DNA of 53,617 nucleotides from IMG/VR virus record IMGVR_UViG_3300046007_010355, positions 1 to 53,617 of that record; one strand, written 5' to 3'. The notes under the pieces were generated by a model, which was not told the origin of the DNA, did no database searches, and saw nothing but the letters and a program-made list of their open reading frames with translations. How positions within the stretch are numbered: position 1 is the first letter of the stretch; each line of letters starts with the position of its first letter. The position numbers and the translations under genes are program-made. Below, one piece after another: positions 6,804 to 44,587 of this stretch. The stretch is from a virus. Lineage: Duplodnaviria; Caudoviricetes.

Positions 6804-7196
6804 TTACATATCTGAATCGAAATTACCTTGCATACGGATTTGTTCTATATCATTCTTTTCTGCGTAGTCGTCGATATACATGGCTAATTTAAAATCTAGT
6901 ATTGTCAGCCCTTCGACATCGGAAGTCGAAGTCTTAATTGTGACCTCGGCAACATCTTGTGTAACCTCGGCGAAGTGATCTAGTTTTTCACTTATACTAT
7001 TAACATATTCTACAAATTCTACAGCATGGCGATGATCTTTAGCCATGTATGTGGCTGTTAGGATTCTATGGTCAAGCATTTCCCAATCTGGTAAGAATCG
7101 ACTTTTTGCATCATCAAGATCGGCATCGGCTGGCACAAATTCTTCGATATCTTTTGATCTATATTTTCCTTCTGCAATATCGATCCAATTTCTCAT
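6804..7196 (-). CDS. Pterin-4-alpha-carbinolamine dehydratase-like protein
   Basis: LPDW...AVEFVEYV...SEKLDHFAEV...EGLTILDFKLA matches the PCD/PhhB pattern, with diverged His motifs. Confidence 0.75.
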   Translation of the reverse strand: MRNWIDIAEGKYRSKDIEEFVPADADLDDAKSRFLPDWEMLDHRILTATYMAKDHRHAVEFVEYVNSISEKLDHFAEVTQDVAEVTIKTSTSDVEGLTILDFKLAMYIDDYAEKNDIEQIRMQGNFDSDM

Positions 7197-7864
7197 TGTG
7201 TGCGATCCTTGTTATCAATAGCACGTTCTATCTTTGCGATATTATATTTACGAGATCCGCATTTATCTCTTAACATATAACTTATAGCCATCTTTGTTAA
7301 ACCCAAATCTAATCTAGTTCCTACTTTTTCTGTTCCGTCTTTGTATGTTACTTGATATTTTGCTCTGGCATATTGATTTGCCATTCCAGTATTCCAGGTT
7401 TTGATACCCCTTAGTGTTTCACTTCTGCGACGGTCTGCATCTGCTTTACGAGCAGCCTTTTCCTCTTCAGTTAAAACTTTTTTAGGTTTTGCTGTTCCTT
7501 TGTTCCAGGGATCTTTACCTTTTCTCTGTTCGCTCCATTTAGCACGAGTTTCCTCCGAAGGAACCCAGCCCGTTTGCCCTTCTCCACCTTCGCTCATATT
7601 GTAACCTTTAGGACCAAATGATTCGTATAGTGCGATATAAAATCTTTCTTTATCATTTAATAGGGTTTTATCTTCTATACTATCCTCGATGATTTCCCAA
7701 ACGAAGTTTTCTTCGCCGTACTTTCGTAATGCTCTATGGAAGGCGAATTTGCATCCTCTTCTGGTATCACTTAAATGATTATTTTTTCTAATGTTGAAAG
7801 GAAGTTCAGTCTTGCCTACATAAGACTTTTGATTAATTTGATTAGTAACTTTATATATTAACAT
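7193..7864 (-). mobile_element. Free-standing GIY-YIG homing endonuclease with NUMOD3-type DNA-binding repeats
   Basis: LIYKVTN...YVGKT...R...H, GYN, SEETRAKWSEQRKGKDPWNKG; likely start at ATG 7864, preceded by TAAATA. Confidence 0.85.
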
Positions 7865-7898
7865 AAAGTTATTTATCATTTCACTTGTAAAGCCAGGG

Positions 7899-8318
7899 TT
7901 ATTGAGTTCTGTCTTTGTCATCAATAGCACCGCCTGTTATGAAAGCAGTACAACTTCTGCTGCCCGCACATTTAAAATGAAGAAAGTTACAGTATCCTAG
8001 ATCTGCTTTGTGTATTGTGGCCATAGTATCTGCATTTGGTTCATCGCCTTTAGCACCTTCTTCGATACATTTCCACATTTTATCACTTACATCAAATGCA
8101 GCACAGTTACCGCACTTCATTGTTCGAGCAGTCTTTTCTGTAATATTCCAACGTTTAGCAGCCTGTTTCCAGTAGTCTTCGGGTTCTTCTGGATTAGCAG
8201 GACCATAATGATATTGATCTATTGCTTTTTGACGATTTTTGAGATTAACATCGATATCGTAAGTAGCAACAGGACATCCTTTATTGGCTGCTTCTATAAG
8301 TTTTATATAGTTTCTCAT
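7899..8318 (-). CDS. Cys-rich protein with a HiPIP-like Fe-S or metal-binding motif
   Basis: CGNCAAF...GYC...KC...RSC..F cysteine pattern. Confidence 0.55.
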   Translation of the reverse strand: MRNYIKLIEAANKGCPVATYDIDVNLKNRQKAIDQYHYGPANPEEPEDYWKQAAKRWNITEKTARTMKCGNCAAFDVSDKMWKCIEEGAKGDEPNADTMATIHKADLGYCNFLHFKCAGSRSCTAFITGGAIDDKDRTQ

Positions 8319-8563
8319 TTCTTTTTACTAGGTTCAGCTGCTGCAAAACGAGCAGCTATGGCCATTCTATCTATGTGCGCAGGATCCTTTTTAGTTCCTG
8401 GCCTATTATTTAATCTAAATTGATGATATCGTTCAGGGTCGGCATTTCGAAATCTTGTTTGCCACACTTCTAAATCGTCAGAAGGTTTCAGTTTAGGTTG
8501 AATACCGACCGGTTTTATTTGAGCAGGTTCTTGGGTCGATTGTTGTGGATCCTGCTCACTTAC
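8315..8563 (-). CDS. -1 frame C-terminal extension (82 aa) of the 749-aa protein via a putative programmed frameshift
   Basis: Open frame VSEQDPQQSTQEPAQIKPVGIQPKLKPSDDLEVWQTRFRNADPERYHQF...DRMAIAARFAAAEPSKKK with no start of its own; entered at A AAA AAG (8563-8569); its stop overlaps the next ATG (ATGA). Confidence 0.65.
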   Translation of the reverse strand, partial: VSEQDPQQSTQEPAQIKPVGIQPKLKPSDDLEVWQTRFRNADPERYHQFRLNNRPGTKKDPAHIDRMAIAARFAAAEPSKKK

Positions 8564-10809
8564 TTTTTTGCTTTGTTATCGGCCCTCTTTTTAGCTTTCC
8601 ATGTTGCACCAAATGCACGTTGAGCTATTTCTTTTTTATCTAAACCACTACCTTTATAACCAGCTTTGATATGTTTAGCCATACGTTTAAATTTAGCCTC
8701 TGGTGGTGCCTCTTCGTTAATCTCACTCTCTAACATTTGTTTAAGTTGTTCAAAGTATGGATCTATATTTTCTAATTCTTCTGCCACACCTCTTCCGTGA
8801 TTACCATTAGCATACGTATTATAAGATTCTTGACCATAACCATTGTTGAAATTAGAATGATCTTCTTTAGAGAAAACTTCATCACCTTGTAGATTATTTA
8901 GAACAGCATTTAGATAATCTGCTGCTTTAGTAATTTTACTTTGTTGCCAAGCTTCTAAGCCCTCCATTTCACTGTATTGTCTAATGATCTTTAGCAATCT
9001 CATAGCATCTTCGATGATACTTGTAAGTTCATTGCTGGCCATAGATATTTCGTGATCGACTGTTTCTTTCATATTTGAATCGGGTTGATCATCTTCTGGT
9101 TTTCTGACTAAAAATATTTTATCTTCTAATTCAGGTTTATTTTTAATAATAGCGAGAGCATAATTATTAGCACCGCGTTTCCAATCAAATACTTTTAGTT
9201 CGCCTTTGCTTCTTAAAATTTTACCATTAATTTTTAAATACCAAGGACCACGATCTCTATCTATTAACTGTCTTTGAAAATTAGGATCGTCTTCATGACC
9301 TAATTCTTGACCAAGCTCGGCTTGTTTAAATCTACGTTTTTCAGCATCCATTTGACGTTGTTGATCTCGTTCATATCCTCTGTAATAACCTGCTTCGTCG
9401 ACAGAGTTATGAACCTTACTTACTTTTAATGCATCTACAGTTTCTATATCTCTCGCAATAGTTAATGTATCTTGTGCTGGATCCTTATCTAAAACTGTCC
9501 ATATACCTTGATGATATTCGACTTTGTCACCTTTTTCAAAACTATCGGCTACTATATCAGCAAAGCCTTCCGTTAAACTTTGTCTTGGCTCAACAAAATG
9601 TCGACCGTCGCCGTCTCGATGAATTATTTCATTGATGAAGTTCTGGGGAGTAGTCATTACTTCATCTATCATGTCTTGACCTATTGCGTCTACTATTCTG
9701 GGCCAGCCTCCTGGCTCTTTGGCAGGGATAAGTCGCCAATCTGTAACAAAACGATATTGTATATCTTGATTAGTAGTGTCATACCACTTGTGATCTAACC
9801 AATCCTCATAGCCTCGACCCTGGGGTCCGTAAACTCTTTCGTATTCCGCTTCTCGATCCTCTCGGTCTTTGGGATCTAAATAAAATATTGCTTCTATTTT
9901 TGGTCCTCCCCACTTGATCTTGACCTTGCCGGTAAACCGTTCTCCTCGAGGAAAGGGAGTTGCAGTATCCCCCATGGAATATTTTTTATTTTTTGGCCAA
10001 ACTAGTACATTCGTTCCCTTAAAATTTAAGGGAAGTTCAAGTGAGTCACCGCCATCGTCACCGCCGCGATTCGGGGCAAATTCATTTAATCGTTCTTCCG
10101 CCACACCTTGCTGCATATTGATGTAACTCGGGGGATTCTTTGGATCAAATTCTGTGCCCGCAGGTAAATTTTTACTATGTGCTACATGACCGTATATCCC
10201 TACATCGCCGTCAATAATGCTGTATTCTACACCTCTTTTGGGTTCTAAATTATACATAAAGGTTTCTGCGTCTTTATAGTTTGCAAATGGACCAAAAGCC
10301 ATTTGATCAGGATCTGCATTGATGTCATTTATATAATAGTCTGCCTGTCCTGGGTTGGTTTGATAGCCTTCCGCCACACTATCTTCTTTGTATGCCTTAC
10401 TATATTTGTCTCTCAATCTACCTAATTCTGCCTGACTGGCACCTCTACGACCTGCTGCCGCAGCCATCTTCATATACTTCTCGCCATGTTTTTTTACACC
10501 TGTGTGATACTGTAGACCGCTTTCTTCTACATCATTTTCGGCGAATGGTTTACGATGTTTTTCCTGACCGCTCTTTTGTTCTTTTTTCTTATCACGGTGT
10601 TTACCACCGCCAGTTTGTGGACGTAGATGACCCTGTCTTGGTTTTTGAGGAACTGTTGGAGTGGCTTCACTAGCTGATCTACGTTGTGTTTGACCTAAAT
10701 TATGTGAAACAGTGGAACCTCCTGCTGTGCTAGATGCACCGCCGGTAGCAGTTTCTAAAATATATCTAGTTTCTTTATCTTTTTGGATTTTTTTGAATTC
10801 GTTTGTCAT
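8560..10809 (-). CDS. Modular (poly)protein, probable head-internal protein
   Basis: 749 aa with repeated (V/L/I)xE junctions (DSVAEG, QQGVAEE, SLTEG, SVDEA, GRGVAEE) separating unrelated-looking modules. Confidence 0.7.
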   Translation of the reverse strand: MTNEFKKIQKDKETRYILETATGGASSTAGGSTVSHNLGQTQRRSASEATPTVPQKPRQGHLRPQTGGGKHRDKKKEQKSGQEKHRKPFAENDVEESGLQYHTGVKKHGEKYMKMAAAAGRRGASQAELGRLRDKYSKAYKEDSVAEGYQTNPGQADYYINDINADPDQMAFGPFANYKDAETFMYNLEPKRGVEYSIIDGDVGIYGHVAHSKNLPAGTEFDPKNPPSYINMQQGVAEERLNEFAPNRGGDDGGDSLELPLNFKGTNVLVWPKNKKYSMGDTATPFPRGERFTGKVKIKWGGPKIEAIFYLDPKDREDREAEYERVYGPQGRGYEDWLDHKWYDTTNQDIQYRFVTDWRLIPAKEPGGWPRIVDAIGQDMIDEVMTTPQNFINEIIHRDGDGRHFVEPRQSLTEGFADIVADSFEKGDKVEYHQGIWTVLDKDPAQDTLTIARDIETVDALKVSKVHNSVDEAGYYRGYERDQQRQMDAEKRRFKQAELGQELGHEDDPNFQRQLIDRDRGPWYLKINGKILRSKGELKVFDWKRGANNYALAIIKNKPELEDKIFLVRKPEDDQPDSNMKETVDHEISMASNELTSIIEDAMRLLKIIRQYSEMEGLEAWQQSKITKAADYLNAVLNNLQGDEVFSKEDHSNFNNGYGQESYNTYANGNHGRGVAEELENIDPYFEQLKQMLESEINEEAPPEAKFKRMAKHIKAGYKGSGLDKKEIAQRAFGATWKAKKRADNKAKK
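8778..10379 (-). repeat. Dispersed 12-nt direct repeat GTGTGGCGGAAG (three copies)
   Basis: Exact copies at 10368-10379 and 10095-10106, one-mismatch copy at 8778-8789; all in frame, encoding VAE. Confidence 0.75.
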
Positions 10810-11171
10810 TTTTTATTCCAATTACTAATTGGGCTCACGGTATATGTGTCAGGTAGTTCTGAACTTTCCATGTCTCCATGATTTAAGTCGTGCACCTTCA
10901 CTCCCGCTACCTTAGCTGATAATTTAATCATTTCTTGTTCTGCTTTACTATATGGATGAAGTGTTTTCCATCTACCTACCCAACTTTCTTCAGGCATATC
11001 GGGTAAATTTACTCCATCACATTTTGCCAAAGCCATTCCTAATCTATAAAGTTTATAATCGCTACTCCATCTATCATCGTCTGTGAATTTGTTTAAGCCT
11101 CTTGTGGCAAAGCGTTGCCTTTTAGAAGGTTCGGGATTCAATTGTTCAAAAATAAATTCACGTGCTCTCAT
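10806..11171 (-). CDS. Hypothetical protein
   Basis: Likely start MRAREFIFE through an ATGA overlap with dps. Confidence 0.75.
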   Translation of the reverse strand: MRAREFIFEQLNPEPSKRQRFATRGLNKFTDDDRWSSDYKLYRLGMALAKCDGVNLPDMPEESWVGRWKTLHPYSKAEQEMIKLSAKVAGVKVHDLNHGDMESSELPDTYTVSPISNWNKK

Positions 11172-11602
11172 TTTAAAGTTGCTCTTAACATCCATCCGTG
11201 CTTATCATGTGCATCTATTCTTGATGCTACAAAATCACTAAATCCATGCTCTCCTAAATTTTCTGATTCTTCAAAAAGTTTTTTGAAAATGATTTTCATT
11301 TTTTCATTATCCATTAACAGTTCTTGAACCATTTGCTTACTATCTAAAATTTCAGTTTCATCTTCTACTTTGGAAAGCATACTTAGCCTAGTATAGCTAC
11401 CGGGCATATATGTGCCTAAACTACGTATCTTTTCGGCAAAATCATCTATACTACCATATACTTCTTCGTAGATTTTGCCGAATAAACTATGTAAAGATTC
11501 AAAGAACATGCCTTCGACATTCCAATGAAATTGATGTGCCTTTAAATAAAAACTGAATTCGCTGGCAAAAGCGATTTTAGCAAGTTTATGTAGATTTTCC
11601 AT
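11168..11602 (-). CDS. dps: Dps-family DNA protection / ferritin-like protein
   Basis: KAHQFHWNVEG, LHSLF, IDDFAEKIR, HDKHGWML. Confidence 0.92.
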   Translation of the reverse strand: MENLHKLAKIAFASEFSFYLKAHQFHWNVEGMFFESLHSLFGKIYEEVYGSIDDFAEKIRSLGTYMPGSYTRLSMLSKVEDETEILDSKQMVQELLMDNEKMKIIFKKLFEESENLGEHGFSDFVASRIDAHDKHGWMLRATLK

Positions 11603-11608
11603 AATATA

Positions 11609-11914
11609 TTATTTACCTATCGGCTTCTCTCCGGTCATGTATGGCAAACTAAACCATAACTTAAACCATTCTGGTGTTCCTGGTTTAATATTGTTATCTC
11701 GCATTAATTTTGCCTTTTCGTTCGCTGTTTTACTAATGTTACTACCTTCATTGGTTTTTAAACTCAATTTATATTCGTGCAGTCTATTTGCAGAATTTAA
11801 ACCAGCGAGATATTGAACAATTTTTAATTCATTTATTGGATCTTCTGGAGAAATATATGCATCATCCTCACTATCTTTTAAAATATTTTCGCTGGTAATT
11901 TTGTATTGTTTCAT
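11609..11914 (-). CDS. Hypothetical protein
   Basis: 101-aa ORF with IKPGTPEWFKLWF motif; ATGA-coupled. Confidence 0.75.
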   Translation of the reverse strand: MKQYKITSENILKDSEDDAYISPEDPINELKIVQYLAGLNSANRLHEYKLSLKTNEGSNISKTANEKAKLMRDNNIKPGTPEWFKLWFSLPYMTGEKPIGK

Positions 11915-14900
11915 TTTTTTAATATTTTTTCAATTAGTGCGGACTTTATATTGTCAATACTTTCTGCTAAACTTTCGTTACTCTTATTACCCCAATTACC
12001 TTTAGCTTTACGGCATTTAACTAAAGCACCACTGGCATATGCACTTGGCCAAACTTTATACCTGCTTTTGACTTTGTAATAACAAGAATCTTTCTTTTCA
12101 TTCATAAATGTTTCGGAAAACATGGGTCCACCACAATGTGGGCATTTTTCACTTTGCTCGTTATGAGTTTTCTTTTTACAACTACCCGGGGCACCAGCTG
12201 GAACACCTTGAACTCTTGTGTAGCCTGACCAGCACTTTAATTCATCAATTTTTTCTTCTGCTGAATCTTGCTGATAAAGGTCATTGTTAGTAAAGTCATA
12301 TATCTCCCCATCCTTATCTATTTTTACTTTTATAAGCCTAGGACTTGGTATTCTAACAATTACACCTGGTTCTGTTCCATACAAACCAAATCTACCATAG
12401 CCTGAAACATTGGCTATGACACGCTGCCCTACTGTAGGTACCATGACTTTTCTAAGATTAGGATTATCGCCTTCAGGTACATTCTCATTCGATTTCTTTT
12501 TTGTAGCAACATTAATTGCTTTACCTGAACGCTCTGGATTAGGATCTTCTCTACGCTTTCTTGCTGCTGCACTAGCACGACCTTTTTTGCCTAAGGCTTG
12601 TGCTTTACTTTGTGGTAAACATTTAGGTTTACCTTCGCTATCGTCTCCACGAGCACAGTCACCACGTATTTTTCCATCAGGACCGAATCTTACCCATTTT
12701 TCTTTGAACCATTTTCTTAAGTTTTCATCTACTTTATCACTGTCGATATCTGTTTCGCCTACTAACTGACCACGTTTCACCGGACCTTTCTGTTTACCTT
12801 TAGCTTGAGCAGCTGGGCCTAATTTATGATATGTAGGAGAACCTGTTCCTGCAAATGCAGATTTTGGTAACATACCTTCTGTGGCTATTAGAGGATTTAT
12901 TAATGCTCTAAATAATCTTATTTCTGAAATTGGCAATTGTGTTTTCGGAGACATAGAAGAATTCTTCCCTAGTGTAATATTCATTAGATTTCTAATCCAA
13001 TTTTGATCTTTGATACTAAAACTTGAAAACCAAACTTTATCTTGCATTTGCTGATCTGTGAGATTTGCATACTCAGGATGATCTTTTCTGTAACCATCTG
13101 GATTTCTTAATACATTTCTAAGACCTGTAAAACTGATTCCAGTTCCTCCTGTTTTTTCCGAACGTTCTGTAATATATGGAATTACTTTAACATGTTCATA
13201 TCCTGCAAATTTGTTAACAGCCTTCATTAAAGCCGATGCCATCTGTTTGGCCATACTTTCTCTATCTTTACCTACAGCGATAACAATCGTATCATACTTT
13301 GGTAATTTTCCTGGCAGTGGATTAATTAGTTCATGCTTAACTTTTTGTATCAGTGACCCGCCTTGCATAACTGTGCTGATGTTTTGTGCATGTTCAGGAT
13401 CTAATTTATGCCATGTTTTTACTTTGATAGCAGGCGGGATAGGGTCATCCTTGCCTTCTGCATTACCAATAAACAGATAAGGATCGCCTCCTAACTCTGT
13501 TGCTTTTTCTTTTGTTAAGTTCCAAAGTTGTTCGTGCCCTTTATGTCCAACAAAACTGCCAATAGCAACTACCGCAGTTTTATTAGTATTTTCTCTGCCG
13601 TGATCTGTACGAGCAGCAGCTTTGGCAGCATTTTTTTGTGCTATAATGTCTTTCTGCCTCTGACTGGTTACTTTGATTGGACCTAATCGACTATTAATTA
13701 CTATACCTTCATAGTCCTGTCCTAACATATCCTTGCCAATAATATTAGGATCTTCATCGATAGCTTTTTCTAATGCAATCTGTATAGGTTTTAATTGTGC
13801 TTCAACTTGTCTACGTAGATCTAAACTGGCGCGATCTCGCTTACCTGCTGTATCACTTACAATTCGTTTGAGCTCTTCTAGGTTTTCTAAAGGAGGTATA
13901 ATTGCTGTAACATCTAGTCCTTGTTTTTGTATGAGTCGATTGCTCATGAACATCACTTTGCCTTGATTGCCTAGACCTGTTATAGCTTTAAGCTCGTCTT
14001 CAGTTTCTGGAATATCTTCGCCTGTAGTAGCATCTACTATACGATAGGGGACCAGAACTAGTTCAACTCCGGTAGGTAATTTATCATATTCTATGCCAAC
14101 AAACAATAATTTGCCTTCTGGTGTTTCTGTAGCAAAAGGAGCAAATAGTACTTCACAAGTAACCTGTTTGTTTAGAAGAAATTCTGGACCTAAATTTGCA
14201 TCTACCATTTTAATGGCATACATTATTTGGTTAAACAAATCATCAAACAGTCCTGCTCTACGTAGAATATCTGGATCAGTTGTTCCTTTTTGTTGATGAT
14301 AGTCTAGAAATCCTGCCTTGTAACGAGGTTCAGTTCTACTCGTTCCCATAAAAGGTTGACCATCGGCATTCTTACCAAATCTGCCACCAAATCCGTCTAC
14401 CTTTACATTTAACGGTATGTCTTGTAGTTTAAAATTACCGTTGCCGTCATGTATTTCGTCTAACAAGTCTAAAAAATCCGCAGGCTTAAGATCTCGTAGA
14501 TGAGGCATATTTTTTCTTAATTGTGCCTTTACTTCTGCTTCTGTCAAAGAAGCCTGTTGTCGAGCTTTTAATTTTTTAAGTTCGGCTCGGGGTTGTTTAA
14601 TATCTGGATTGGCTTTTTTAAATGCTTCTAATTCTTCATAATCGGCTGTATATGCCGTAGCCATATCGATTGCTTCCTGTCTTAATCCGGTAGGATTAGG
14701 TAATTTAAGTGGTTTAATATTTTCTTCCTTATTACCTAATATCATTGCATCTACGGCTGCGAATTTAATATCTCTATCTCTAATCGGATCACCTTTAGTG
14801 ATCATTTGTTCTCCAGGGTCAAACAAAATTTTTAAAAATTGACGAGCAATTCCTTCGTTGACTTCGGGAGTAAACTCTTGATTCATTAATTGAATTGTAC

Positions 14901-15843
14901 CTAAAAAACTATTTTGTAAAGCAACATCTTGTTTAGTTCTTTTTCTACCAAATAAAGATAAAAATTGCTTATCTAAATTTTGAACATATTCTCTATCTTC
15001 TGAATCGACTTCTACTTTTACAGGAATATTGTTAATAAACATAGGTTCACCGGTATTAGGATCAATATAATCTTTATATCTATCGGATAAACCTCCTCCC
15101 TGACTACTTTTGACAGCAAAACTCTTATCTGCTGATACTACAGGTTCTGGTGAAATTTCTGTAGGTTTTCTTTTATAAACTTTGGCAATATATTTTTCAG
15201 TGGCTTGTGATATGGGTATACTTCTATATAGGTATTTGTGAAAGACTCCTTTTATTCCTTGTGCCATATCATTATAATCAGCACTGTGACTAAATTTAAA
15301 CCATTCAGTAGGTTTGCCTGTTTCGGGTTCATAAGGTCCTAATTCATAATCAACCTGCACTTTTATTGGAGGATCGTCTAATAACCAAAGACCCGATAAA
15401 CTGGCATTAAATCCAATAAATGTAGCATTACCGATTTTTTTACCTATAATGCTTTTAAGCCAAGCATTAATTTCATCTGCAATTTCTCGATCTACCTGTG
15501 TATCTATGTCACCGACTTTGGTTTTCTTTAATTTGTTGAGAAAATCTTGTGTATTAACACCTTTTACATCCATAAAATACAAACTACTGCCACTGAACAT
15601 ATCATTGCCGTCTAATAACTTTGGATCCCAAATTGGACGACCGTATGCAGCTTCAAATGATTGATTTTGTGCTTTCAACAATTCTCGCATTTTTTCAACC
15701 ATAAAATCACGATTATGAAGTTTTAAATCTATTTCTTCTGCTTTATGTTCTCCGGGAACGCCTTGCCAACCCGGGCTATCTGAACCAACATTACCGCCTT
15801 CAGTTATTAAATTTTGTTTTCTAAATAATTGATTAAGAAACAT
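11911..15843 (-). CDS. Multidomain protein: Pol-beta-like nucleotidyltransferase + ligase-like KxDG domain + HxGH cytidylyltransferase-like domain + small basic/Cys modules
   Basis: SGSS...GDID...QVD; VKVDG...EVLF...EGIV...IKV; FVGHKGH; C-terminal LRKWFKEKWV, CPHC and WPSAYASG modules. Confidence 0.65.
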   Translation of the reverse strand: MFLNQLFRKQNLITEGGNVGSDSPGWQGVPGEHKAEEIDLKLHNRDFMVEKMRELLKAQNQSFEAAYGRPIWDPKLLDGNDMFSGSSLYFMDVKGVNTQDFLNKLKKTKVGDIDTQVDREIADEINAWLKSIIGKKIGNATFIGFNASLSGLWLLDDPPIKVQVDYELGPYEPETGKPTEWFKFSHSADYNDMAQGIKGVFHKYLYRSIPISQATEKYIAKVYKRKPTEISPEPVVSADKSFAVKSSQGGGLSDRYKDYIDPNTGEPMFINNIPVKVEVDSEDREYVQNLDKQFLSLFGRKRTKQDVALQNSFLGTIQLMNQEFTPEVNEGIARQFLKILFDPGEQMITKGDPIRDRDIKFAAVDAMILGNKEENIKPLKLPNPTGLRQEAIDMATAYTADYEELEAFKKANPDIKQPRAELKKLKARQQASLTEAEVKAQLRKNMPHLRDLKPADFLDLLDEIHDGNGNFKLQDIPLNVKVDGFGGRFGKNADGQPFMGTSRTEPRYKAGFLDYHQQKGTTDPDILRRAGLFDDLFNQIMYAIKMVDANLGPEFLLNKQVTCEVLFAPFATETPEGKLLFVGIEYDKLPTGVELVLVPYRIVDATTGEDIPETEDELKAITGLGNQGKVMFMSNRLIQKQGLDVTAIIPPLENLEELKRIVSDTAGKRDRASLDLRRQVEAQLKPIQIALEKAIDEDPNIIGKDMLGQDYEGIVINSRLGPIKVTSQRQKDIIAQKNAAKAAARTDHGRENTNKTAVVAIGSFVGHKGHEQLWNLTKEKATELGGDPYLFIGNAEGKDDPIPPAIKVKTWHKLDPEHAQNISTVMQGGSLIQKVKHELINPLPGKLPKYDTIVIAVGKDRESMAKQMASALMKAVNKFAGYEHVKVIPYITERSEKTGGTGISFTGLRNVLRNPDGYRKDHPEYANLTDQQMQDKVWFSSFSIKDQNWIRNLMNITLGKNSSMSPKTQLPISEIRLFRALINPLIATEGMLPKSAFAGTGSPTYHKLGPAAQAKGKQKGPVKRGQLVGETDIDSDKVDENLRKWFKEKWVRFGPDGKIRGDCARGDDSEGKPKCLPQSKAQALGKKGRASAAARKRREDPNPERSGKAINVATKKKSNENVPEGDNPNLRKVMVPTVGQRVIANVSGYGRFGLYGTEPGVIVRIPSPRLIKVKIDKDGEIYDFTNNDLYQQDSAEEKIDELKCWSGYTRVQGVPAGAPGSCKKKTHNEQSEKCPHCGGPMFSETFMNEKKDSCYYKVKSRYKVWPSAYASGALVKCRKAKGNWGNKSNESLAESIDNIKSALIEKILKK

Positions 15844-17135: not shown

Positions 17136-17783
17136 TCAAGTATTTATGCTAGACCTTAATACAAATTTTTCTATGTGTCCTATATATTGGTTATAAGTTA
17201 ATAGCATCATAGTAATCATTTTAGGGTCTGAAACATATACAAATGGACTTTGTATCCATTGACGTTTACCCTTTAAGTACTCTGCGGTCGATTTACTTAT
17301 TTTAAAAATTTCTTTGTGTTGATTTAACCAATTATAGATTTCTAATTTGGCATATGTTGGAATATTCTTAAAAAATACTTTATGTGTATAACATTCATAG
17401 GGATAACTATCTACTATAGTTAATTTACTATTTTCTGTAAGCAATTTTTTTTCAGTATCACTATGAGGTTCCCAAACCTTAACAATATGCTGTGATAAAT
17501 CTTGTGTTAAAGATTCGAATAAAGCTTTATCCTCTAAAAATATATTAAGATATGACCCTTCTAATCTTGTTTTGATTAATTTTTGTTCAATCAGTGGTGA
17601 TAATAAAAGTAAAAGGTGCTGTAAATTTTTTCCGCTTGATGTATGGTTAAGATTCAGCAAATTAATTACACCCAATATACCATAATATTTGACTTTGTTA
17701 ATTCCTAAAACAAAGCAAGATATTTTGTAGGGGAATTTGTTATAAAATAGTTTACTGGTTTTCTGTTTGTGTAAATTTTTCAT
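17136..17783 (-). CDS. Hypothetical protein
   Basis: 215-aa ORF downstream of clpA. Confidence 0.75.
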   Translation of the reverse strand: MKNLHKQKTSKLFYNKFPYKISCFVLGINKVKYYGILGVINLLNLNHTSSGKNLQHLLLLLSPLIEQKLIKTRLEGSYLNIFLEDKALFESLTQDLSQHIVKVWEPHSDTEKKLLTENSKLTIVDSYPYECYTHKVFFKNIPTYAKLEIYNWLNQHKEIFKISKSTAEYLKGKRQWIQSPFVYVSDPKMITMMLLTYNQYIGHIEKFVLRSSINT

Positions 17784-20022
17784 TTTTAATTTTTACAGGT
17801 AACGGATCGATATATTCAAAGTGTAATTGTTGTTTTAGGACTGAAATTTCAACAATACCACCATTTGTCAATTTGCCAAATAAAATTTCTTTGCTTAACG
17901 GCTTCTTAATCATTTCTTCGATTGTTCTAAAAAGAGGTCTAGCACCCATCTTTTTATCGAATCCTTTATCTACTAAAAATTCGTAGGCATCGGAATTTAA
18001 TTTAACATGAATGTTTTTGTCTTTGACTAATAAATTCAATTCGTCTACAAATTTCTTAACAATCTTAATCATTGTGGTTTTATCTAGTTTACCGAACTGT
18101 ATAATAGCATCTATTCTATTTCTAAATTCCGGACTAAAGAATTGATTAATAGTGTTGTTGGGATCTTGTTCTTTTTCTAAATTACCAAAACCAATTGAAT
18201 TTTTTTCGGCATCTGCTGCACCTATATTACTGGTCATAATTAAGATAAGATTACGAGCATCTGCCTTTTTACCATTACTACCGGTAACAAATCCATTATC
18301 CATAAGCTGTAGCATAATTGTAATTACATCGGGATGAGCTTTTTCAATTTCATCTAACAGCAGTACACAGTTTGGATTTTCTTGGATTTGAGTAATTAAT
18401 TGTCCAGCATTATCTTCGAATCCAACGTATCCGGGTGGACTACCGATGAATTTTGCAACACTATGTTTTTCTTGATATTCACTCATGTCGAATCGAACTA
18501 ATTTTACATGCAAATTAGATGCTAATTGTTTAGCAACTTCAGTTTTTCCTACACCGGTGGGTCCAACAAAAAGAAAGTTTCCTACTGGTTTGTTAATGCT
18601 TTTTAATCCTGATTGCGCAATATATACTTTGTCTAATAGATTTTTAATTGCTTTTTCTTGACCAAACACAGCATTAAATAAGTTTTTTTCTAAATTAGCT
18701 AAATTAACACTTTCTTTACTGTTCAGTTGCTCTACAGGTAAGTTTGACAATTTAGCAATTTCGAACAAAATTTCTGAACGATCTACTACTCCGTTTTCTT
18801 CATCTTTAATTTTAAATCTTGCTGATGCACAATCAATTATATCAATTGCTTTATCTGGCAATTTTTTATCACTGATATATTTCACACTATATTTTACTGC
18901 GTCAATAACGGCTTGATTTGTAATTTTTACTTTATGATGTTTCTCAAAATATTTTTTTAATCCTTTTAGGATTTTAATTGCAGTATCTTCATCTGGTTCT
19001 TCAACCGTAACTTTTTGGAATCTGCGCATTAACGCACGATCTTTTTCAAAATGTTTTCTATATTCTTCCCAAGTTGTACTAGCAATAACTTTAATATTTC
19101 CTTTACCTAACGCATTTTTTAACATATTGGCCATATCATTGCTGCCACCGTTGCTGGTGCCTGCACCGTTCATCATATGTGCTTCGTCGATAAAAAGGAT
19201 ACATTTACCCCTGCGTTCAACTGCATTTATAACTGCTTTAAGCCGTTCTTCAAAATCTCCTCGATATTTACTACCTGCCAATAAACTACTGATCTCTAAA
19301 CTATAAACTGTGTGATCTTTAATAAATTCTGGAACATTTCCTTCAATTATCTTTCTAGCAATACCTTCTGCTATAGCTGTTTTACCCACACCCGGGTCTC
19401 CGATAAGAATAGCATTTGCTTTATTTCTTCTAGCCAGAATTAGTTGAACCTCTTCGATTTCTTTCTCTCGTCCAATTACAGGGTCTATTTTTTTGTTCTT
19501 TGCTTTTGCTGTTAAATTAACGCAGAATTGTGTAATGATTTTTTCAAGTTGATGTAGTGCTTGATTGCTCAATGTACCATCTTTATTTTGTTTTTCTTCT
19601 TTTTTAATAAAATTCAAAAATGGTTCTTTTTCAATATTTGCTTGACGAACAAAATGATTTGCATGGCTTTTCTTTTCGTTTAACAAACTAATAAAGCAGT
19701 CTAGTGGTTCGATAATTTGTCTACCACTGAATAACACTTCATGAAATGCTCTATTTAGAACTCTGTCTACTGTTGCAGTCTTTTTAGGTTTTTCTATAGA
19801 CGGATTAACAATATCGTTTAATTCATTAGAAATAAAATTTTCTAGATTTTCTTGCAGTTGATCTACATCAGCACCAAAGTTTTTTAATAGTTGATTCAAT
19901 GATTGATTAGAAATCATACTGTACAGGAAATGTTCTAAGGTCACATATTCATGATTTTTTGAAATGGCAAGTTGTACAGCATTATCGAAAATATTTTCTA
20001 GATCTTTATTTGGTTCTAACAT
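17752..20022 (-). CDS. clpA: ATP-dependent Clp protease ATP-binding subunit ClpA-like
   Basis: Clp N domain (HEYVTLEH), two AAA+ modules (GDPGVGKT, GPTGVGKT), RFDMSEYQEKHSVA, GARPL; no ClpB coiled-coil; likely start at ATG 20022. Confidence 0.92.
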   Translation of the reverse strand: MLEPNKDLENIFDNAVQLAISKNHEYVTLEHFLYSMISNQSLNQLLKNFGADVDQLQENLENFISNELNDIVNPSIEKPKKTATVDRVLNRAFHEVLFSGRQIIEPLDCFISLLNEKKSHANHFVRQANIEKEPFLNFIKKEEKQNKDGTLSNQALHQLEKIITQFCVNLTAKAKNKKIDPVIGREKEIEEVQLILARRNKANAILIGDPGVGKTAIAEGIARKIIEGNVPEFIKDHTVYSLEISSLLAGSKYRGDFEERLKAVINAVERRGKCILFIDEAHMMNGAGTSNGGSNDMANMLKNALGKGNIKVIASTTWEEYRKHFEKDRALMRRFQKVTVEEPDEDTAIKILKGLKKYFEKHHKVKITNQAVIDAVKYSVKYISDKKLPDKAIDIIDCASARFKIKDEENGVVDRSEILFEIAKLSNLPVEQLNSKESVNLANLEKNLFNAVFGQEKAIKNLLDKVYIAQSGLKSINKPVGNFLFVGPTGVGKTEVAKQLASNLHVKLVRFDMSEYQEKHSVAKFIGSPPGYVGFEDNAGQLITQIQENPNCVLLLDEIEKAHPDVITIMLQLMDNGFVTGSNGKKADARNLILIMTSNIGAADAEKNSIGFGNLEKEQDPNNTINQFFSPEFRNRIDAIIQFGKLDKTTMIKIVKKFVDELNLLVKDKNIHVKLNSDAYEFLVDKGFDKKMGARPLFRTIEEMIKKPLSKEILFGKLTNGGIVEISVLKQQLHFEYIDPLPVKIKNEKFTQTENQ

Positions 20023-20023
20023 A

Positions 20024-20515
20024 TTATTTTTTCCTTTTACTCTTTTTAACCGCAAGTGCCCATTTGATATTTGATATTCTATCTTTAAATGTGATTCCTT
20101 CTAAGTGATCTAATTCGTGTAGAAAACATTTACAATTATATCCGTCGAATATATCTTCTTGCCATTCTCCTTTTGAATTTTGCCATCTAGCTTTAATTTT
20201 TTTAGGACGTTTAATATTAACATAAATTCCCGGGAAGCTCAAACAGCCTTCTTCTAGATTTTCTACATCATCTAAATGTGCAACAACCATGGGATTAAAG
20301 AAAGCTTGTGCATTATCTGGGTAATCTTTATGTCCCATTACGAATACTCTTGCACTTATTCCTATTTGATTAGCTGCTAATCCTATTCCATTTTCTTTAA
20401 ACATAATATCTATCATATCTTTTTCTAATTGGATAGGATCATATTTTGGATTAGAAAAATCAAAGTTTTCTATCCTTTGAAATAATATTGGATTTGGATA
20501 TTTTACAATTTGCAT
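20024..20515 (-). CDS. def: Peptide deformylase
   Basis: GIGLAANQIG, EGCLSFP, HELDHLEG. Confidence 0.97.
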   Translation of the reverse strand: MQIVKYPNPILFQRIENFDFSNPKYDPIQLEKDMIDIMFKENGIGLAANQIGISARVFVMGHKDYPDNAQAFFNPMVVAHLDDVENLEEGCLSFPGIYVNIKRPKKIKARWQNSKGEWQEDIFDGYNCKCFLHELDHLEGITFKDRISNIKWALAVKKSKRKK

Positions 20516-31796: not shown

Positions 31797-34700
31797 TTAT
31801 TGTATTTTTTTCTTTAAATCATCTATTTCTTTTGACAATTCTTGAATAGCTTTTACTATAATAGGTATCAATCTATCAGTAGATACTGTATATCTTTCTG
31901 GATCACCTATACCTACAATATTGGTCCATTCCGCATTGTGTTTTTTAATAATAGTCTGTAATTGTTGTGCAAGAAATCCGGTTTGAGTCATACCTTTTTT
32001 ACCATCCAAAGGAGCATTCCTCATATTCCATTCAAACTTAACCGGTTCTATTTCGTTAACAAATTTTAATCCCAATGGCAGTGGTTGTATATTAGTTTTA
32101 TCCCTACAATCAGAATAGGCTGTAAAGGCAACTGCTACCCTTGAACAGGTTATACTTGCATTTCCAATTGTGACAGAATTACAAGCTGTATCGTTGTAAG
32201 ATGTAGCTTGACAGCCTATTATGATGTTATTACATCCGGCTATCATGTTATACGCAGCACAAGTTCCTAAATATGTATTGTTATCACCTTCGCCACTGGT
32301 TGCGTTATATCCGATTACAACGTTATTACAACCGGTTTTATTGCTATACATCGCACAACATCCGATGGCAATATTTCCATTACGGCCACCGTTATATAAT
32401 GCAGCACTTCCAATTGCAATGTTGTCATATCCGGCATCATTTTTTTGGCTCATACTAAGCAAGCCTACAGCAATGTTATAACATCCTGTAGAGGTGCAAC
32501 ACAATGCACAATGGCCTATGGCTATGTTCAGCTGGGCATCATTATTTTTTAATGCATCTGTGCCTATTGCAATATTGCATCCACCGCATGTATTAAGCAA
32601 CAGAGAATTCCTGCCTATTGCAATATTTTCACATCCAGTTTTATTTACAGTTAGTGCACAATTACCTATAGCAATATTACACATTCCTAATGTTTGTTGC
32701 TGTAAACTTTGTCTTCCTATTGCTATGTTGCTAGATCCACCTGTATTTCCGCACATTGAGTACTCACCTATAGCAATATTATGATTTCCAGTACGATTAA
32801 ATCGTAATGGAAAATACCCAATGGCAACATTATTAGATCCGCTATCACTACAATATGCAGCTAATGCTCCTATTGCTATATTAAAGTCAGCTACGCATGC
32901 CGATAATAATGCGCTATCTCCAATTGCAACATTTTGACTTCCGCGAACAAAACGCAGGGTTTGATCACCTATCGCTATATTAGCATTTCCTCCCATTTGC
33001 TCACCAGCAAGATTACCTATGGCAATTGCCTCTGATGTTCCGGTATTGACAGAAGTCATTGCATTATGACCTATGGCGATCAACCCAGTTTGACCATTTA
33101 AATTAAGTAACGCTGATGATCCGACAGCAACATTACAACGGCCTGTTGTATTGCATTTTAAAGCTTGATATCCTACTGCTATATTATTACAACCATTAGT
33201 GATACATTTACTAGACTCAAAACCTAGTGCAACGTTAGCCTCGCCAAATGATAGTCCTAGAAATACACAGCCTCCTATTCCAACATTTGAATGACCGGTT
33301 GAATTTGATTTACCTGCATCCCTTCCTAGAAACACATCATGACCTACTGCTCCTAGTGCGGAGTTGTTGGTATGACCGTATACTGTTCCTAAAGTGGTAG
33401 GGGTCGCAGCACTTACTGTACTAGATGAACCACTAAATCCGCTTATACCTGAATAACCACTATCTCCAGAATACCCACTAGCTCCTGAATACCCACTAGC
33501 TCCTGAATACCCACTCGGTCCTGAATATCCACTCGGTCCTGAATATCCACTCGGTCCTGAATACCCACTCGGTCCTGAATATCCACTCGGTCCTGAATAT
33601 CCACTCGGTCCTGAATAACCACTAAATCCACTCCAACCACTAATGCCAGAAAATCCACTTAGTCCTGAATAACCTGATGCTCCACTCCAGCCACTCGGTC
33701 CTGAATAACCACTAAATCCACTTATACCTGAATACCCTGAGATACCTGAATACCCTGAGATACCTGAATAGCCACTTACGGTTTCTCCACTAAATCCACT
33801 TATACCTGAATAGCCTGAGATACCTGAATAACCGCTACTGCTTGAATATCCTGAGATACCAGAATAACCGCTAATACCTGAATAGCCTGAGATACCTGAG
33901 TAACCGCTAATACCTGAATAGCCTGAGATACCTGAGTAACCGCTCAATCCTAACCCACTATATCCGCTAATACCTGAATAGCCTGAGATACCCGAATAGC
34001 CTGAGATACCCGAATAGCCTGAGATACCTGAATAGCCTGAGATACCTGAGTAACCGCTACTACTTGAATAGCCTGAGATACCTGAATATCCTGAGATACC
34101 TGAGTAACCGCTACTGCTTGAATAGCCTGAGATACCTGAATAGCCTGAGATACCAGAATAGCCTGAGATACCAGAATAGCCTGAGATACCTGAATAGCCA
34201 CTCAGTCCTACCCCACTATATCCGCTAATACCTGAATAACCGCTAATACCTGAATATCCTGAGATACCTGAATATCCTGAGATACCTGAGTAACCGCTAC
34301 TGCTTGAATATCCTGAGATACCTGAGTAACCGCTAATACCTGAATAACCACTGTATCCACTTTCGGCGGTTCCTGAATACCCTGAGATTCCTGAATAACC
34401 TGAGTAACCGCTACTGCTTGAATAGCCTGAAATACCTGAGTAACCGCTAATACCTGAATAGCCTGAATACCCGCTATGACCGCTATAACCGCTAGTACCT
34501 GATCCTGAATAGCCTGAGATACCTGAATATCCTGAGATACCTGAATATCCTGAGATACCTGAATAGCCTGAGATACCTGAATAGCCTGAGATACCTGAAT
34601 ACCCTGAGTGCCCGCTATATCCACTCGAAGCTATTCCCGAATAGCCAGAGATACCCGAATAGCCTGAGATACCTGAATAGCCTGAGATACCTGAATAGCC

Positions 34701-35408
34701 TGAGTAACCGCTAATACCTGAATATCCACTGTAACCTTGATCTCCCTTGTCACCTGTTCTAGCAAATGTAATTACTATGTCTTCGTTATTAACAAAAGAT
34801 GAAACAGACCCCGAAACGTATGCACAATCTACCGTAAAGTATCCTGTATTTTCAGTAAGAGAACTAATAGTATATAAAACAAAACTATTGAAATCGCTTT
34901 TCTTTGTAACCTTAAAATGTCCTTTAATAGTGCTAGTGCTGTCGTCTATTGTACGTAAAAACAGTTGAATATCAAAAGGACCATCCTGTTCGTCATCTAT
35001 ATATAATTGTGTTGCTAAAGTTAAATCACCACTGTTAAATTTAAGTTTTCCACTTGTAGGATCAGTGTTTGTCGTAATTGTACTAAAGGTATAATCAAAT
35101 GCTGCACCACCAAATCCGCCTATTTGACCGCTATAACCGCTAAATCCGCTCCACCCACTAATACCAGAATAACCGCTAATACCAGAATAACCGCTAATAC
35201 CAGAATAACCGCTAATACCAGAATAACCAGAGTGACCACTAAATCCCCTTGGACCGGTAGGACCTTTAGCGCCCGACGTTGCCAACCATGATTGGGCAGC
35301 AGGTAGCGTTAGCGACTGATTGACGCCCTGGTCTTGAACTATAATTAAAGTTTGATTAGTAGGACTTGTTAGTTCTGGAAGATTGACTAAATCTGGTCTT
35401 GTTGTCAT
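31797..35408 (-). CDS. Tail fibre with (SGX)n repeats, Cys-rich NIAIG beta-roll repeats and a C-terminal intramolecular chaperone (S74-like)
   Basis: Long SGYSGISGY tracts; repeated NIAIG..AL units; SDCRDKTNI...GFLAQ...IVKAIQEL. Confidence 0.85.
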   Translation of the reverse strand: MTTRPDLVNLPELTSPTNQTLIIVQDQGVNQSLTLPAAQSWLATSGAKGPTGPRGFSGHSGYSGISGYSGISGYSGISGYSGISGWSGFSGYSGQIGGFGGAAFDYTFSTITTNTDPTSGKLKFNSGDLTLATQLYIDDEQDGPFDIQLFLRTIDDSTSTIKGHFKVTKKSDFNSFVLYTISSLTENTGYFTVDCAYVSGSVSSFVNNEDIVITFARTGDKGDQGYSGYSGISGYSGYSGISGYSGISGYSGISGYSGIASSGYSGHSGYSGISGYSGISGYSGISGYSGISGYSGISGYSGSGTSGYSGHSGYSGYSGISGYSGISGYSSSSGYSGYSGISGYSGTAESGYSGYSGISGYSGISGYSSSSGYSGISGYSGISGYSGISGYSGISGYSGVGLSGYSGISGYSGISGYSGISGYSGISGYSSSSGYSGISGYSGISGYSSSSGYSGISGYSGISGYSGISGYSGISGYSGISGYSGLGLSGYSGISGYSGISGYSGISGYSGISGYSGISGYSSSSGYSGISGYSGISGFSGETVSGYSGISGYSGISGYSGISGFSGYSGPSGWSGASGYSGLSGFSGISGWSGFSGYSGPSGYSGPSGYSGPSGYSGPSGYSGPSGYSGPSGYSGASGYSGASGYSGDSGYSGISGFSGSSSTVSAATPTTLGTVYGHTNNSALGAVGHDVFLGRDAGKSNSTGHSNVGIGGCVFLGLSFGEANVALGFESSKCITNGCNNIAVGYQALKCNTTGRCNVAVGSSALLNLNGQTGLIAIGHNAMTSVNTGTSEAIAIGNLAGEQMGGNANIAIGDQTLRFVRGSQNVAIGDSALLSACVADFNIAIGALAAYCSDSGSNNVAIGYFPLRFNRTGNHNIAIGEYSMCGNTGGSSNIAIGRQSLQQQTLGMCNIAIGNCALTVNKTGCENIAIGRNSLLLNTCGGCNIAIGTDALKNNDAQLNIAIGHCALCCTSTGCYNIAVGLLSMSQKNDAGYDNIAIGSAALYNGGRNGNIAIGCCAMYSNKTGCNNVVIGYNATSGEGDNNTYLGTCAAYNMIAGCNNIIIGCQATSYNDTACNSVTIGNASITCSRVAVAFTAYSDCRDKTNIQPLPLGLKFVNEIEPVKFEWNMRNAPLDGKKGMTQTGFLAQQLQTIIKKHNAEWTNIVGIGDPERYTVSTDRLIPIIVKAIQELSKEIDDLKKKIQ
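33430..34740 (-). repeat. Coding tandem repeat of 9/18-nt units (Ser-Gly-Tyr/Ile/Phe/Pro)
   Basis: For example cctgagatacctgaatag repeated many times; a shorter tract lies at about 35120-35250. Confidence 0.9.
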
Positions 35409-43648: not shown

Positions 43649-44587
43649 TTACACTTCTCTTTGAAAATAAGCAATAGTTTTACGAAGTCCGTCCTCTAAT
43701 GAAATAGAAGGTTCCCAGTTTAATATCTGTTTTGCTAAACTGATATCTGGTCTACGCTGTTTTGGATCATCTTTAGGTAATGGACTTTTAATTATTTGAC
43801 TAGAACTTTTAGTTAACTCGAGTACTTTTGTTGCTAATTCGTTCATAGTAAATTCACCAGGATTGCCTAAATTGATAGGTCCGGGAATTGTTTGCTCTGT
43901 GTTCAACTCCATATATTTCAACATAGCATCGATAAGATCATCTACATAACAAAAACTTCTAGTCTGTTCTCCGTCTCCGTAAATGGTTAAATCGATTCCT
44001 TTAAGAGCCTGTACAATCAAGTTACTGACCACTCGTCCGTCATTCTTAGCCATTCTAGGACCGTAAGTATTGAAAATTCTAATGATTCTTACATCTACAT
44101 TATGTACACGCCAATAATCCATAAAAAGAGTTTCAGCCGCACGTTTGCCTTCGTCATAGCAACTTCTAATACCAATCGGATTTACATTGCCCCAATAGTC
44201 TTCTTTTTGAGGATGAATTTTAGGATCGCCGTATACTTCCGAAGTACTGGCTTGGAGAATCTTAGCACCAGTTCTTTTAGCTAAACCTAATAGATTATAG
44301 GATCCTAAAATGCTAGTTTTCATAGTTTGAATCGGATCCCATTGATAGTAGAATGGACTAGCAGGACAGGCTAAATTGTATATTTCATCAACTTCCACAT
44401 ATAATGGAAAGCATACATCTTGTCTTAATACTTCGAAATTTTTGTAATCTAATAAATTTTCTATATTCTTTTTTGATCCTGTAAAGTAATTATCGACACA
44501 TAGTACATGATGACCGGAGTTTACTAAACGATCGCAAAGATGGCTACCTAAAAATCCAGCACCACCTGTAACTAAAATCTTTTTCAT
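43649..44587 (-). CDS. UDP-glucuronate decarboxylase-like (UDP-xylose synthase) NAD-dependent SDR
   Basis: [55 protein letters not shown]. Confidence 0.9.

Follow-up and report, generated by a model that had tools for sequence, protein, structure and literature searches.

The small, often basic cargo proteins IPI, IPII, IPIII and Alt of phage T4 carry an N-terminal leader and are cut after hydrophobic-x-Glu by gp21, a prohead protease of the S77 type; the internal proteins are ejected together with the DNA, and their set varies between related phages, according to the accessible part of the source (PMC9026906). The same portion of that source specifies that the internal proteins enter the head by way of a leader of approximately 10 residues, which gp21 then removes, and that gp21 cuts after the Glu of L/I-x-E. 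In phage SPN3US, the diverged T4-type protease gp245 cuts many head and ejection proteins after Glu, its site being A-x-E, and some substrates are cut at multiple sites; these cuts remove N-terminal propeptides, and the available part of the source reports neither a separation of chained modules nor conservation at the DNA level (PMC10052503). Here, we describe a gene, P0001, in which modules are chained within one open reading frame (ORF) by a repeated joint that encodes V-A-E and is conserved as DNA. The gene lies in the virus record IMGVR_UViG_3300046007_010355 (Duplodnaviria; Caudoviricetes), of which positions 1 to 53,617 were analyzed; this stretch, hereafter the window, is an IMG/VR fragment (approximately 15% complete) of an uncultured giant T4-type lake phage and is present in lake and freshwater metagenomes. 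A first-pass annotation, made from the sequence alone, had noticed GC-rich 12-mers at VAE junctions of this gene and proposed that they delimit modules of an in-frame cassette-shuffling system.

As in T4, relatives of this phage encode an S77 protease and a gp23-like capsid protein, and the joints end in V-A-E. The T4 cargoes, however, are separate genes with one leader each, whereas many are chained here in one ORF by the repeated joint; cleavage and packaging are demonstrated in T4 and predicted here, and the joint DNA is fixed at silent sites. In the T-even gp38 adhesins, short conserved glycine-rich motifs lie between hypervariable segments and exchanges fall in the motifs, which form the structural core of one domain, and deletions of single segments are not viable, as stated in the accessible part of PMC3157838. 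Unlike in gp38, the segments at the present locus are whole unrelated modules that are gained and lost, and the motif is a linker. A conserved motif also marks the point of module exchange in CdiA (VENN) and Rhs (PxxxxDPxGL) proteins, where strains differ exactly after the motif; these bacterial systems have one junction per protein, a cassette accompanied by an immunity gene, and promoterless orphans downstream (PMC3150448, available portion). Genes of the present family, in contrast, have up to eight joints and no immunity genes, and the loci examined contained no orphan arrays: cassettes abut directly within one ORF, and copies of the motif that are off-frame or in short frames are explained by locus ends, gene ends or chance.

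Similar in concept are the polyvalent proteins, which have 2 to 15 domains, are predicted to be packaged in the capsid, delivered with the DNA and cut into units, and are extensively mosaic; they are defined by recognizable enzymatic domains and often have their own processing peptidase, and the accessible part of the text mentions no repeated codon-locked joint and does not use the word 'linker' (PMC5512222). Unlike the proteins of Iyer et al. 2017, the present family gave no known conflict-related domain and no in-chain peptidase in Pfam and PHROG searches. No description of such a joint was found in the literature searched, in which most subscription journals were lacking, and the peptide GVAEG led to no phage paper there. 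Integrons depend on the tyrosine recombinase IntI and on a folded, imperfectly palindromic attC site, and their cassettes are separate ORFs expressed from one promoter. The present locus resembles them in its arrays of many unrelated, similarly small cassettes and in a recurring boundary site at which gain, loss and reshuffling occur; it differs in that no integrase was found, that a 17-18-mer without palindromic symmetry, translated as codons, takes the place of attC, and that a single ORF contains all the cassettes of an array.

The reading that we favour, with slightly better than even confidence, is that the joint is a short-homology site of in-frame recombination that doubles as a Glu-specific cleavage site of a T4-type prohead protease, and that cleavage releases capsid-packaged cargo modules. 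In the window, the 12-mer GTGTGGCGGAAG occurs on the minus strand as two exact copies 273 nt apart and as a third copy with one mismatch (Table 1). Three copies at up to one mismatch compare with 0.05 expected, and none of 100 dinucleotide-preserving shuffles reached three; at up to two mismatches the excess is not significant, with four copies against 1.27 expected and three of 100 shuffles reaching four. All three copies lie in P0001 in a single frame, xGT GTG GCG GAA Gxx, and encode SVAEG (residues 144-148), GVAEE (235-239) and GVAEE (674-678). The first-pass annotation had remarked on GTG GCG codons at the junctions in a genome that prefers codons ending in A or T; in the window ORFs, 9.7% of Val codons are GTG and 4.9% of Ala codons are GCG, and among the 30 Val codons of P0001 the only three GTG codons stand one at each of the three joints.

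Spelling of the joint was followed in 84 IMG/VR loci; because these were fetched by protein similarity, DNA spelling played no part in their choice. Their ORFs with two or more [GS]VAE sites provided 139 joints of unique context. The exact sequence GGTGTGGCGGAA was found at 93 of the 139. The joint Val is GTG in 119 of 139 cases compared to 15% elsewhere in the same ORFs, and the joint Ala is GCG in 119 of 139 compared to 5.8%; the Gly before VAE is GGT in 128 of 133 (background 44%), the Gly after it is GGC in 64 of 86 (background 27%), and, among the codons listed, the preceding Gln is CAA in 90 cases and CAG in none (background for CAA 70%). The hexamer GTGGCG was used at 107 of 135 joints, at two of 11 non-joint VAE sites of the same ORFs, and at four of 72 VAE sites of other ORFs. 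The codon lock is specific to the joints, and the earlier proposal that something acts on the DNA beyond the peptide stands, as selection or as homogenization. What is conserved as DNA is a sharp stretch of approximately 18 nt, CAAGGTGTGGCGGAAGGC, on the coding strand only and at this locus only: conservation extends approximately from -8 to +11 relative to GTGGCGGAA, which gives (A)(G)CAAGGTGTGGCGGAAGG(C), and falls to background level beyond both sides. Of 117 unique GTGGCGGAA sites, 113 have an open VAE frame. Variation among the copies is 0-9% at non-synonymous positions of G-V-A-E, 3-4% at the silent positions of Gln and Gly, and 12-15% at those of Val, Ala and Glu; these mismatch rates indicate selection on the peptide and, in addition, silent sites that are strongly conserved.

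Across IMG/VR, the exact 17-mer was present in at least 130 stretches and the same site in preferred codons (GTA GCA) in 50, some of them unrelated genes such as a helicase, whereas background codon usage predicts the reverse by approximately 17-fold; the two sets were fetched with unequal flanks (1500 and 300 nt, respectively), so that counts per ORF are not comparable between them. Both joints of one 206-kb record (G002; loci L078 and L266) are spelled GTA GCA, the only clear lineage-specific variant observed. Several general sources of a uniform spelling were considered and rejected. A genome-wide signal of the Chi-like or packaging type was rejected because a 14-mer, counted at up to one mismatch in five large related records (138-221 kb), has 0, 1, 2, 2 and 7 copies, which in each record are confined to a single small region and a single strand. 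An overlapping gene was rejected because the VAE frame is the only open one at 89 of the 117 sites, and the codon usage of a donor was rejected because the family ORFs themselves seldom use GCG.

The spelling is uniform across diverged lineages without lineage-specific drift, its conservation is sharp-edged like that of a binding site, and silent positions that add no G+C are also fixed (GGT in 96%; CAA in all 90 Gln cases listed). These properties, and the presence in the window of a free-standing GIY-YIG/NUMOD3 homing endonuclease gene two genes downstream of P0001, speak for a dedicated enzyme, such as a site-specific recombinase, a nicking or homing endonuclease or another DNA-binding factor, that would read the 17-18-mer and make the locus a true in-frame analogue of the integron. 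We hold this to be rather improbable. No tyrosine recombinase (PF00589) was found in the window or in the five large relatives, which are fragments of 35-62% completeness, and no serine recombinase (PF00239) in those five; the GIY-YIG gene lies near a family gene in only one other fetched locus, and is thus not a conserved neighbour; no nuclease or recombinase domain was found in the four conserved upstream neighbours (56-79 loci); and the site is non-palindromic and has no flanking structure. With no IntI-type recombinase found in these records, and with a joint that lacks the inverted repeats of attC and cassettes that are not separate ORFs, the earlier description of the repeat as an integration site in an integron-like array holds as an analogy only. 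The arrangement is not that of a shufflon either: at up to four mismatches the 18-mer gave 194 unique matches, all 194 direct on the gene strand (a reversed control pattern gave 12), and the incomplete records yielded no site-specific recombinase.

The GTG and GCG to which the joint is locked are also what make the GG runs in GG-TGT-GG-C-GG-AA-GG, and ViennaRNA with its G-quadruplex option folds the 18-mer as a two-layer quadruplex. Since, in addition, CAAGG resembles ribosome-binding sites of the window (CAAGGAG, CAAGGGG; strong core in 16 of 42 genes) and every copy is on the coding strand, the G-rich joint could act in the mRNA as a Shine-Dalgarno-like or two-layer quadruplex pause, or as the site of an RNA-binding protein or nuclease; it would then space the translation and folding of successive cassettes, and shuffling would be a side effect of identical linkers. 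We think this very doubtful. The quadruplex is marginal (-1.36 kcal/mol) and needs neither the fixed T of GGT nor the CAA codon, the 94-nt contexts of 75 joints have no excess of structure (mean z -0.53 against mononucleotide shuffles), and no Rfam match was obtained in 8300-11000 at E<=1. No start codon follows the joint at a fixed distance, which led to the rejection of internal translation starts, and the case for an RNA-level role of the joint is weak. It is likewise unlikely, in our estimate, that the joint is selected at the levels of DNA exchange, peptide cleavage and possibly translation together, as a purpose-built signal for in-frame recombination or an 'att site inside an ORF'; on that same unlikely account, a phage factor or a G-rich DNA structure would act on the 18-mer, in an integron-like assembly of capsid-delivered arsenals.

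The modular character of the family was apparent at the protein level. A protein search over 5.8 billion clusters yielded 75 metagenomic proteins that share pieces of P0001, and these pieces occupy different positions in different proteins. The tripeptide VAE was observed 140 times in the 76 proteins compared to 18 expected, nearly always as (K/E/Q)-Q-G-V-A-E-G. A common N-terminus, M.NEFKK..ETRYVLE.ATAGATS...QKPRQGPLRPQTGGGAHRDKKKEQKQGKEKHRKPFAE, is shared by 26 members, which also share a helical core (DHEISMASNEL...LEAWQQSKITKAADYLNSVL) and a basic tail, with variable material between. In all, 328 internal joint-bounded cassettes (median length 76 aa) from 147 proteins formed 202 clusters, 147 of them singletons, and recurrent cassettes have several different neighbours. 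Domain matches among 45 relatives were limited to small DUFs (DUF3008, DUF6321, DUF5872, DUF7230 and DUF5710, all of which occur as cassettes), one PG_binding_1 domain and one TAT_signal match that was below threshold. A mini-module of approximately 25 aa, NPCWKGYKPVGTKKKGGRTVPNCVP, recurs in P0016, P0024, P0026, P0039, P0066 and others, and the tripeptide CWK occurs 28 times compared to 0.3 expected; the mini-module and the small DUF cassettes are all basic and may bind nucleic acid. Some stand-alone ORFs (among L118, L193, L095 and L170) consist of a leader of 10-20 aa, one codon-locked joint and one module, and some array genes end 2-10 codons past their last joint, like an empty slot (L150, L205, L223 and L129).

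Natural replacement and insertion of cassettes exactly at joints were observed. The gene of locus L015 has 99.3% identity to that of L025 over nt 1-290 and 100% identity in the last 1037 nt; in the interval from the first joint to the one that precedes the core module, L015 has a single 79-aa cassette and L025 has two unrelated cassettes of 98 and 115 aa, and identity stops and restarts inside the joint 15-mers. In the lake run X6, one contig (record 23) joins window positions 10368-11000 and 10117-10379, two pieces that have the 12-mer in common and are separated by 171 extra bases; this amounts to an in-frame insertion of 183 nt, or 61 codons, flanked by the repeat at joint J1. On a second X6 contig (record 17) homology stops within the decayed joint J3, at 9572. 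Contig depth over cassette B in run X1 is 3-7x that over its flanks, with loose ends at 9564 and 10113, as would be expected if cassette B has several contexts in that community; the population evidence consists of contigs rather than reads, and stretches of the window that contigs of runs X5, X6 and X8 did not cover were not counted as evidence.

Orthologues vary in the content and order of their modules, and the position of core module D in the chain varies as well. Among protein high-scoring segment pairs (HSPs) of at least 75% identity between 69 multi-joint proteins, 32% of 636 unique internal ends fall within 6 aa of a joint compared to 7% at random, left ends peaking at the Q/G of the joint and right ends at its E/G; approximately 12% of about 1280 DNA HSP end points of each kind fall on the motif compared to 1.7%, although a linker common to two sequences biases HSP ends towards itself. 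Closely related loci differ by 21 unique indels; 14 are inside family ORFs, and 11 of these are multiples of three. Crossover points in the conserved in-frame motif are seen in the L015/L025 replacement, in the X6 insertion and in the enrichment of HSP ends. The first-pass annotation had named outcomes that would speak against cassette shuffling, and the data point the other way on each: module content is not constant among orthologues, the synonymous codons of the joints are not random, and breakpoints of gain, loss and replacement fall on the repeat in the HSP ends, the X6 contig, the indels and the L015/L025 pair.

Genes for a Peptidase_S77 prohead protease of the T4 gp21 type are present in three of the five large relatives, beside a scaffold-like gene and a gp23-type capsid protein; three of the five likewise carry a recombinase gene of the RecA/UvsX-like type. 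No S77 protease was found in the approximately 15%-complete window, where the capsid protein was not searched for. The sites V-A-E↓G, YILE19↓T and KPFAE91↓N of P0001 (arrows mark putative cuts) fit the hydrophobic-x-Glu class of protease sites. The N-terminus of the family is similar to the part of the capsid protein that surrounds the maturation site (BLASTP E 8e-5; hhalign E 5e-5). In T4, we take gp23 to be cut after residue 65. One invariant column of the alignment holds E19 of the family, E65 of T4 gp23 (sequence from NC_000866, the record of which gives gp23 as cleaved by gp21) and, from the lake-phage capsid protein, the Glu of YLGE↓SATAG, and E19, with which the putative leader of P0001 ends, is invariant in the 26 members. 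Small ORFs of other loci have a leader of 10-20 residues ending in the joint, for example MKTLREYINLIESAEQGVAE↓G and MRATEFIIEGVAE↓G.

The favoured mechanism, put together from these observations, would work as follows. The gene would encode a conserved leader at the N-terminus, followed by small cassettes that are chained together and for the most part unrelated, with (K/E/Q)-Q-G-V-A-E↓G as the cassette boundary, spelled near-invariantly CAA GGT GTG GCG GAA GGC. The identical GC-rich stretch of 17-18 nt would provide a short-homology crossover point for joints that belong to one array, to paralogous arrays or to co-infecting phages, and a crossover at joints would replace, insert or delete whole cassettes with the frame always kept. 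Swapping would probably proceed by general homologous or annealing recombination without a dedicated enzyme, and this recombination may be what keeps the DNA spelling uniform. After assembly, the chain would be cut inside the capsid by the T4-type (S77) protease, like the T4 internal proteins and Alt, the pieces would exit the capsid with the DNA, and the cassettes may then act in the host. New combinations of cassettes would be tolerated because the chain would be cut into separate pieces.

Several results weigh against this mechanism. The counted joints come from related lake phages of common ancestry and are not independent events, and 17 bases is short for efficient recombination of the RecA type. 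Local homogenization of the joints by recombination predicts that copies from one genome are more alike than copies from different genomes, which was not observed: concordance within loci was 0.716 compared to 0.698 in shuffled sets, with 607 of 2000 shuffles at or above the observed value. Homogenization within lineages was rejected as an explanation of the spelling on this lack of a signal. In addition, 68% of the ends of high-identity protein HSPs are more than 6 aa from an intact joint, and the motif is at both ends of only three of the 14 family-ORF indels, at one end of seven and at neither end of four. Both flanking joints are perfect in 13 of 42 recurrent cassettes and in 36 of 58 singletons (p 0.002), so the prediction that recurrent, mobile cassettes keep cleaner joints failed and the opposite was found; post hoc, the contrast can be read as new arrivals bringing fresh joints. 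In record G001, the joints are approximately 70 kb from the protease and capsid genes, outside the head-gene cluster. Finally, we infer cleavage at the joints, capsid packaging and the cargo function of the cassettes from sequence features, and the term 'effectors' in the first-pass annotation was a guess, because no cassette has an assigned function.

That cleavage and packaging are predictions also favours another account, in which the joint is a passive flexible spacer, the multidomain protein stays whole and is perhaps not packaged, and the uniform DNA results from molecular drive with no selected benefit. The gene is located among non-structural genes (ferritin-like, ClpB-like and deformylase), the decayed joint J3 persists in place, and the singleton cassettes, possibly recent arrivals, have the cleanest flanks. 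We give this account a low probability. A passive spacer does not call for the strong conservation of the peptide, evident from the excess of VAE in the 76 proteins and from the 0-9% variation at non-synonymous positions. The joint peptide ending in hydrophobic-x-Glu like the sites of T4-type proteases, the alignment of the N-terminus with the capsid protein maturation site and the stand-alone small ORFs with a short leader ending in the same joint likewise argue against this account.

The modules of P0001 are listed in Table 1. The whole protein has no Pfam or PHROG family match, and tblastn against 50,697 phage records gave no match. Module M2 is found at many positions in approximately 50 other proteins, with HSPs that end at aa 141-148. 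The modules flanked by the repeats, which to the first-pass annotation looked unrelated to the rest of the protein, are distinct: cassette A has no tblastn match in the fetched loci, whereas cassette B (GC 0.44) has copies in only 13 proteins among 1.84 billion representatives. All 13 copies are embedded, their positions range from 147 to 874, and nine of them are 76-87% identical. An AlphaFold model of cassette B from an 11-row alignment had a mean predicted local distance difference test score of 38.8 and was unusable, and an ESM Atlas search gave weak leads only (scores 0.81-0.83: hypothetical phage proteins, Arr-ms and DarT), which were not counted as evidence. The border that had been placed near 9570 proved to be a real, decayed fourth joint (J3), and relatives show PRQSVAEG in its place. 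Within region C, HSP borders were seen for P0011 (400-469), P0019 (472-589) and P0021 (471-584), and the SVDEA site there matches the consensus at only six of 18 bases. Core module D gave 60 tblastn matches in 52 loci. The G+C content at third codon positions (GC3) is 0.32-0.34 in M2, A and B and 0.13-0.23 in N, C, D and E, which suggests that the 5'-proximal cassettes derive from a G+C-richer donor.

Table 1. Positions of the modules and joints of P0001 and of other features in the window.
Feature	Position	Strand	Evidence or remark
Modular 'polyprotein' gene P0001, 749 aa	8560..10809	-	ORF and translation; relatives share pieces only
Predicted leader, aa 1-19 (MTNEFKK...TRYILE), putative protease site after E19	10753..10809	-	T14 and E19 do not vary among 26 members
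Conserved N-terminal module (26-member alignment), aa 20-91: capsid-protein N-arm-like, with basic region ending KPFAE	10537..10752	-	tblastn: 78 fetched loci
Module M2, aa 92-147 (GLQYHTGVKKHGEKYMK...), small, widely reused	10369..10536	-	
Joint J1, GAT AGT GTG GCG GAA GGC (DSVAEG)	10366..10383	-	15/18 to consensus; holds exact 12-mer 10368-10379
Cassette A, aa 148-238, unique	10096..10368	-	GC3 0.33
Joint J2, CAA GGT GTG GCG GAA GAA (QGVAEE)	10093..10110	-	16/18; holds exact 12-mer 10095-10106
Cassette B, aa 239-414 (starts ERLNEFAP), mobile	9568..10095	-	HSPs start at aa 232-234; GC3 0.34
Joint J3, decayed, CAA AGT TTA ACG GAA GGC (QSLTEG)	9565..9582	-	14/18
Region C, aa 415-583, at least two modules	9061..9567	-	HSP borders near aa 469-472 (SVDE↓A; arrow, border)
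Conserved core module D, aa 584-677 (DHEISMASNEL...LEAWQQSKITKAADYLN)	8779..9060	-	Alignment of 26 members
Joint J4, AGA GGT GTG GCA GAA GAA (RGVAEE)	8776..8793	-	13/18; holds one-mismatch 12-mer 8778-8789
C-terminal basic tail module, aa 678-749	8563..8778	-	26-member alignment; tblastn: 11 loci
Upstream neighbours: 1310-aa, 101-aa, ferritin-like 144-aa and 129-aa proteins	10806..15843	-	tblastn: 59, 76, 56 and 79 fetched loci, respectively
129-aa gene	10806-11195	-	Overlaps start of P0001
Ferritin/Dps-like protein	11168-11602	-	Adjoins cassette gene in 56 loci
1310-aa gene	11911-15843	-	No Pfam family
GIY-YIG/NUMOD3 homing endonuclease, free-standing	7193-7930	-	
Pterin-4a-carbinolamine dehydratase	6804-7196	-	Auxiliary gene
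ClpB-like double AAA+ ATPase	17752-20055	-	Auxiliary gene
Peptide deformylase	20024-20515	-	Auxiliary gene
Nucleotide-sugar epimerase	43649-44587	-	Auxiliary gene
FAD-dependent (DAO family) oxidoreductase	44726-45919	-	Auxiliary gene
Two large collagen-like tail-fibre genes, side by side	31797-35408, 35418-37934	-	Many PHROG tail-fibre matches
736-aa protein with He_PIG Ig-like domains	38583-40793		

The family-B DNA polymerase of the window is 43-50% identical to those of jumbo myoviruses, for example Atu_ph07, Phosso and GAP32, and other genes encode a clamp loader, collagen-like tail fibres, the ClpB-like ATPase, peptide deformylase and an endolysin; no tRNA was found in the window. Six auxiliary genes that are unusual for a phage, from the ferritin/Dps-like protein to the FAD-dependent oxidoreductase, are given in Table 1; the ferritin-like domain of the 144-aa neighbour was assigned by Pfam. 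The C-terminal third of the 1310-aa neighbour contains small, basic, Cys-containing mini-modules like those of the cassette family. GVAE joints in the same spelling are present in the upstream ORFs of 800-1200 aa of other loci, ORFs that we regard as homologous to the one for the 1310-aa protein, and a second, adjacent gene family would therefore use the joint as well. Residues 9-18 of the 129-aa protein (MRAREFIFEQ) resemble MRATEFIIEGVAE, the short leader of the stand-alone joint-bearing ORF of L170, and this protein may be another capsid-cargo protein with an internal start.

Phage proteins that are carried into the host with the DNA are prime candidates for counter-defence. The locus suggests a general way to diversify such arsenals, in which chained cargoes are split by a sequence that serves as both crossover point and protease site, and in which any cassette could be added, removed or moved without harm to the reading frame or to the function of its neighbours. 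If this is true, the approximately 200 cassette clusters would be a catalogue of candidate host-takeover and anti-defence proteins, almost all of them functionally unassigned, and the joint would be a natural design rule for the packaging of foreign proteins in T4-type capsids. The joints also provide a clear example from nature of silent sites that are under strong purifying pressure within a coding region, an example that bears on how second-order selection (evolvability) or molecular drive shapes viral genes.

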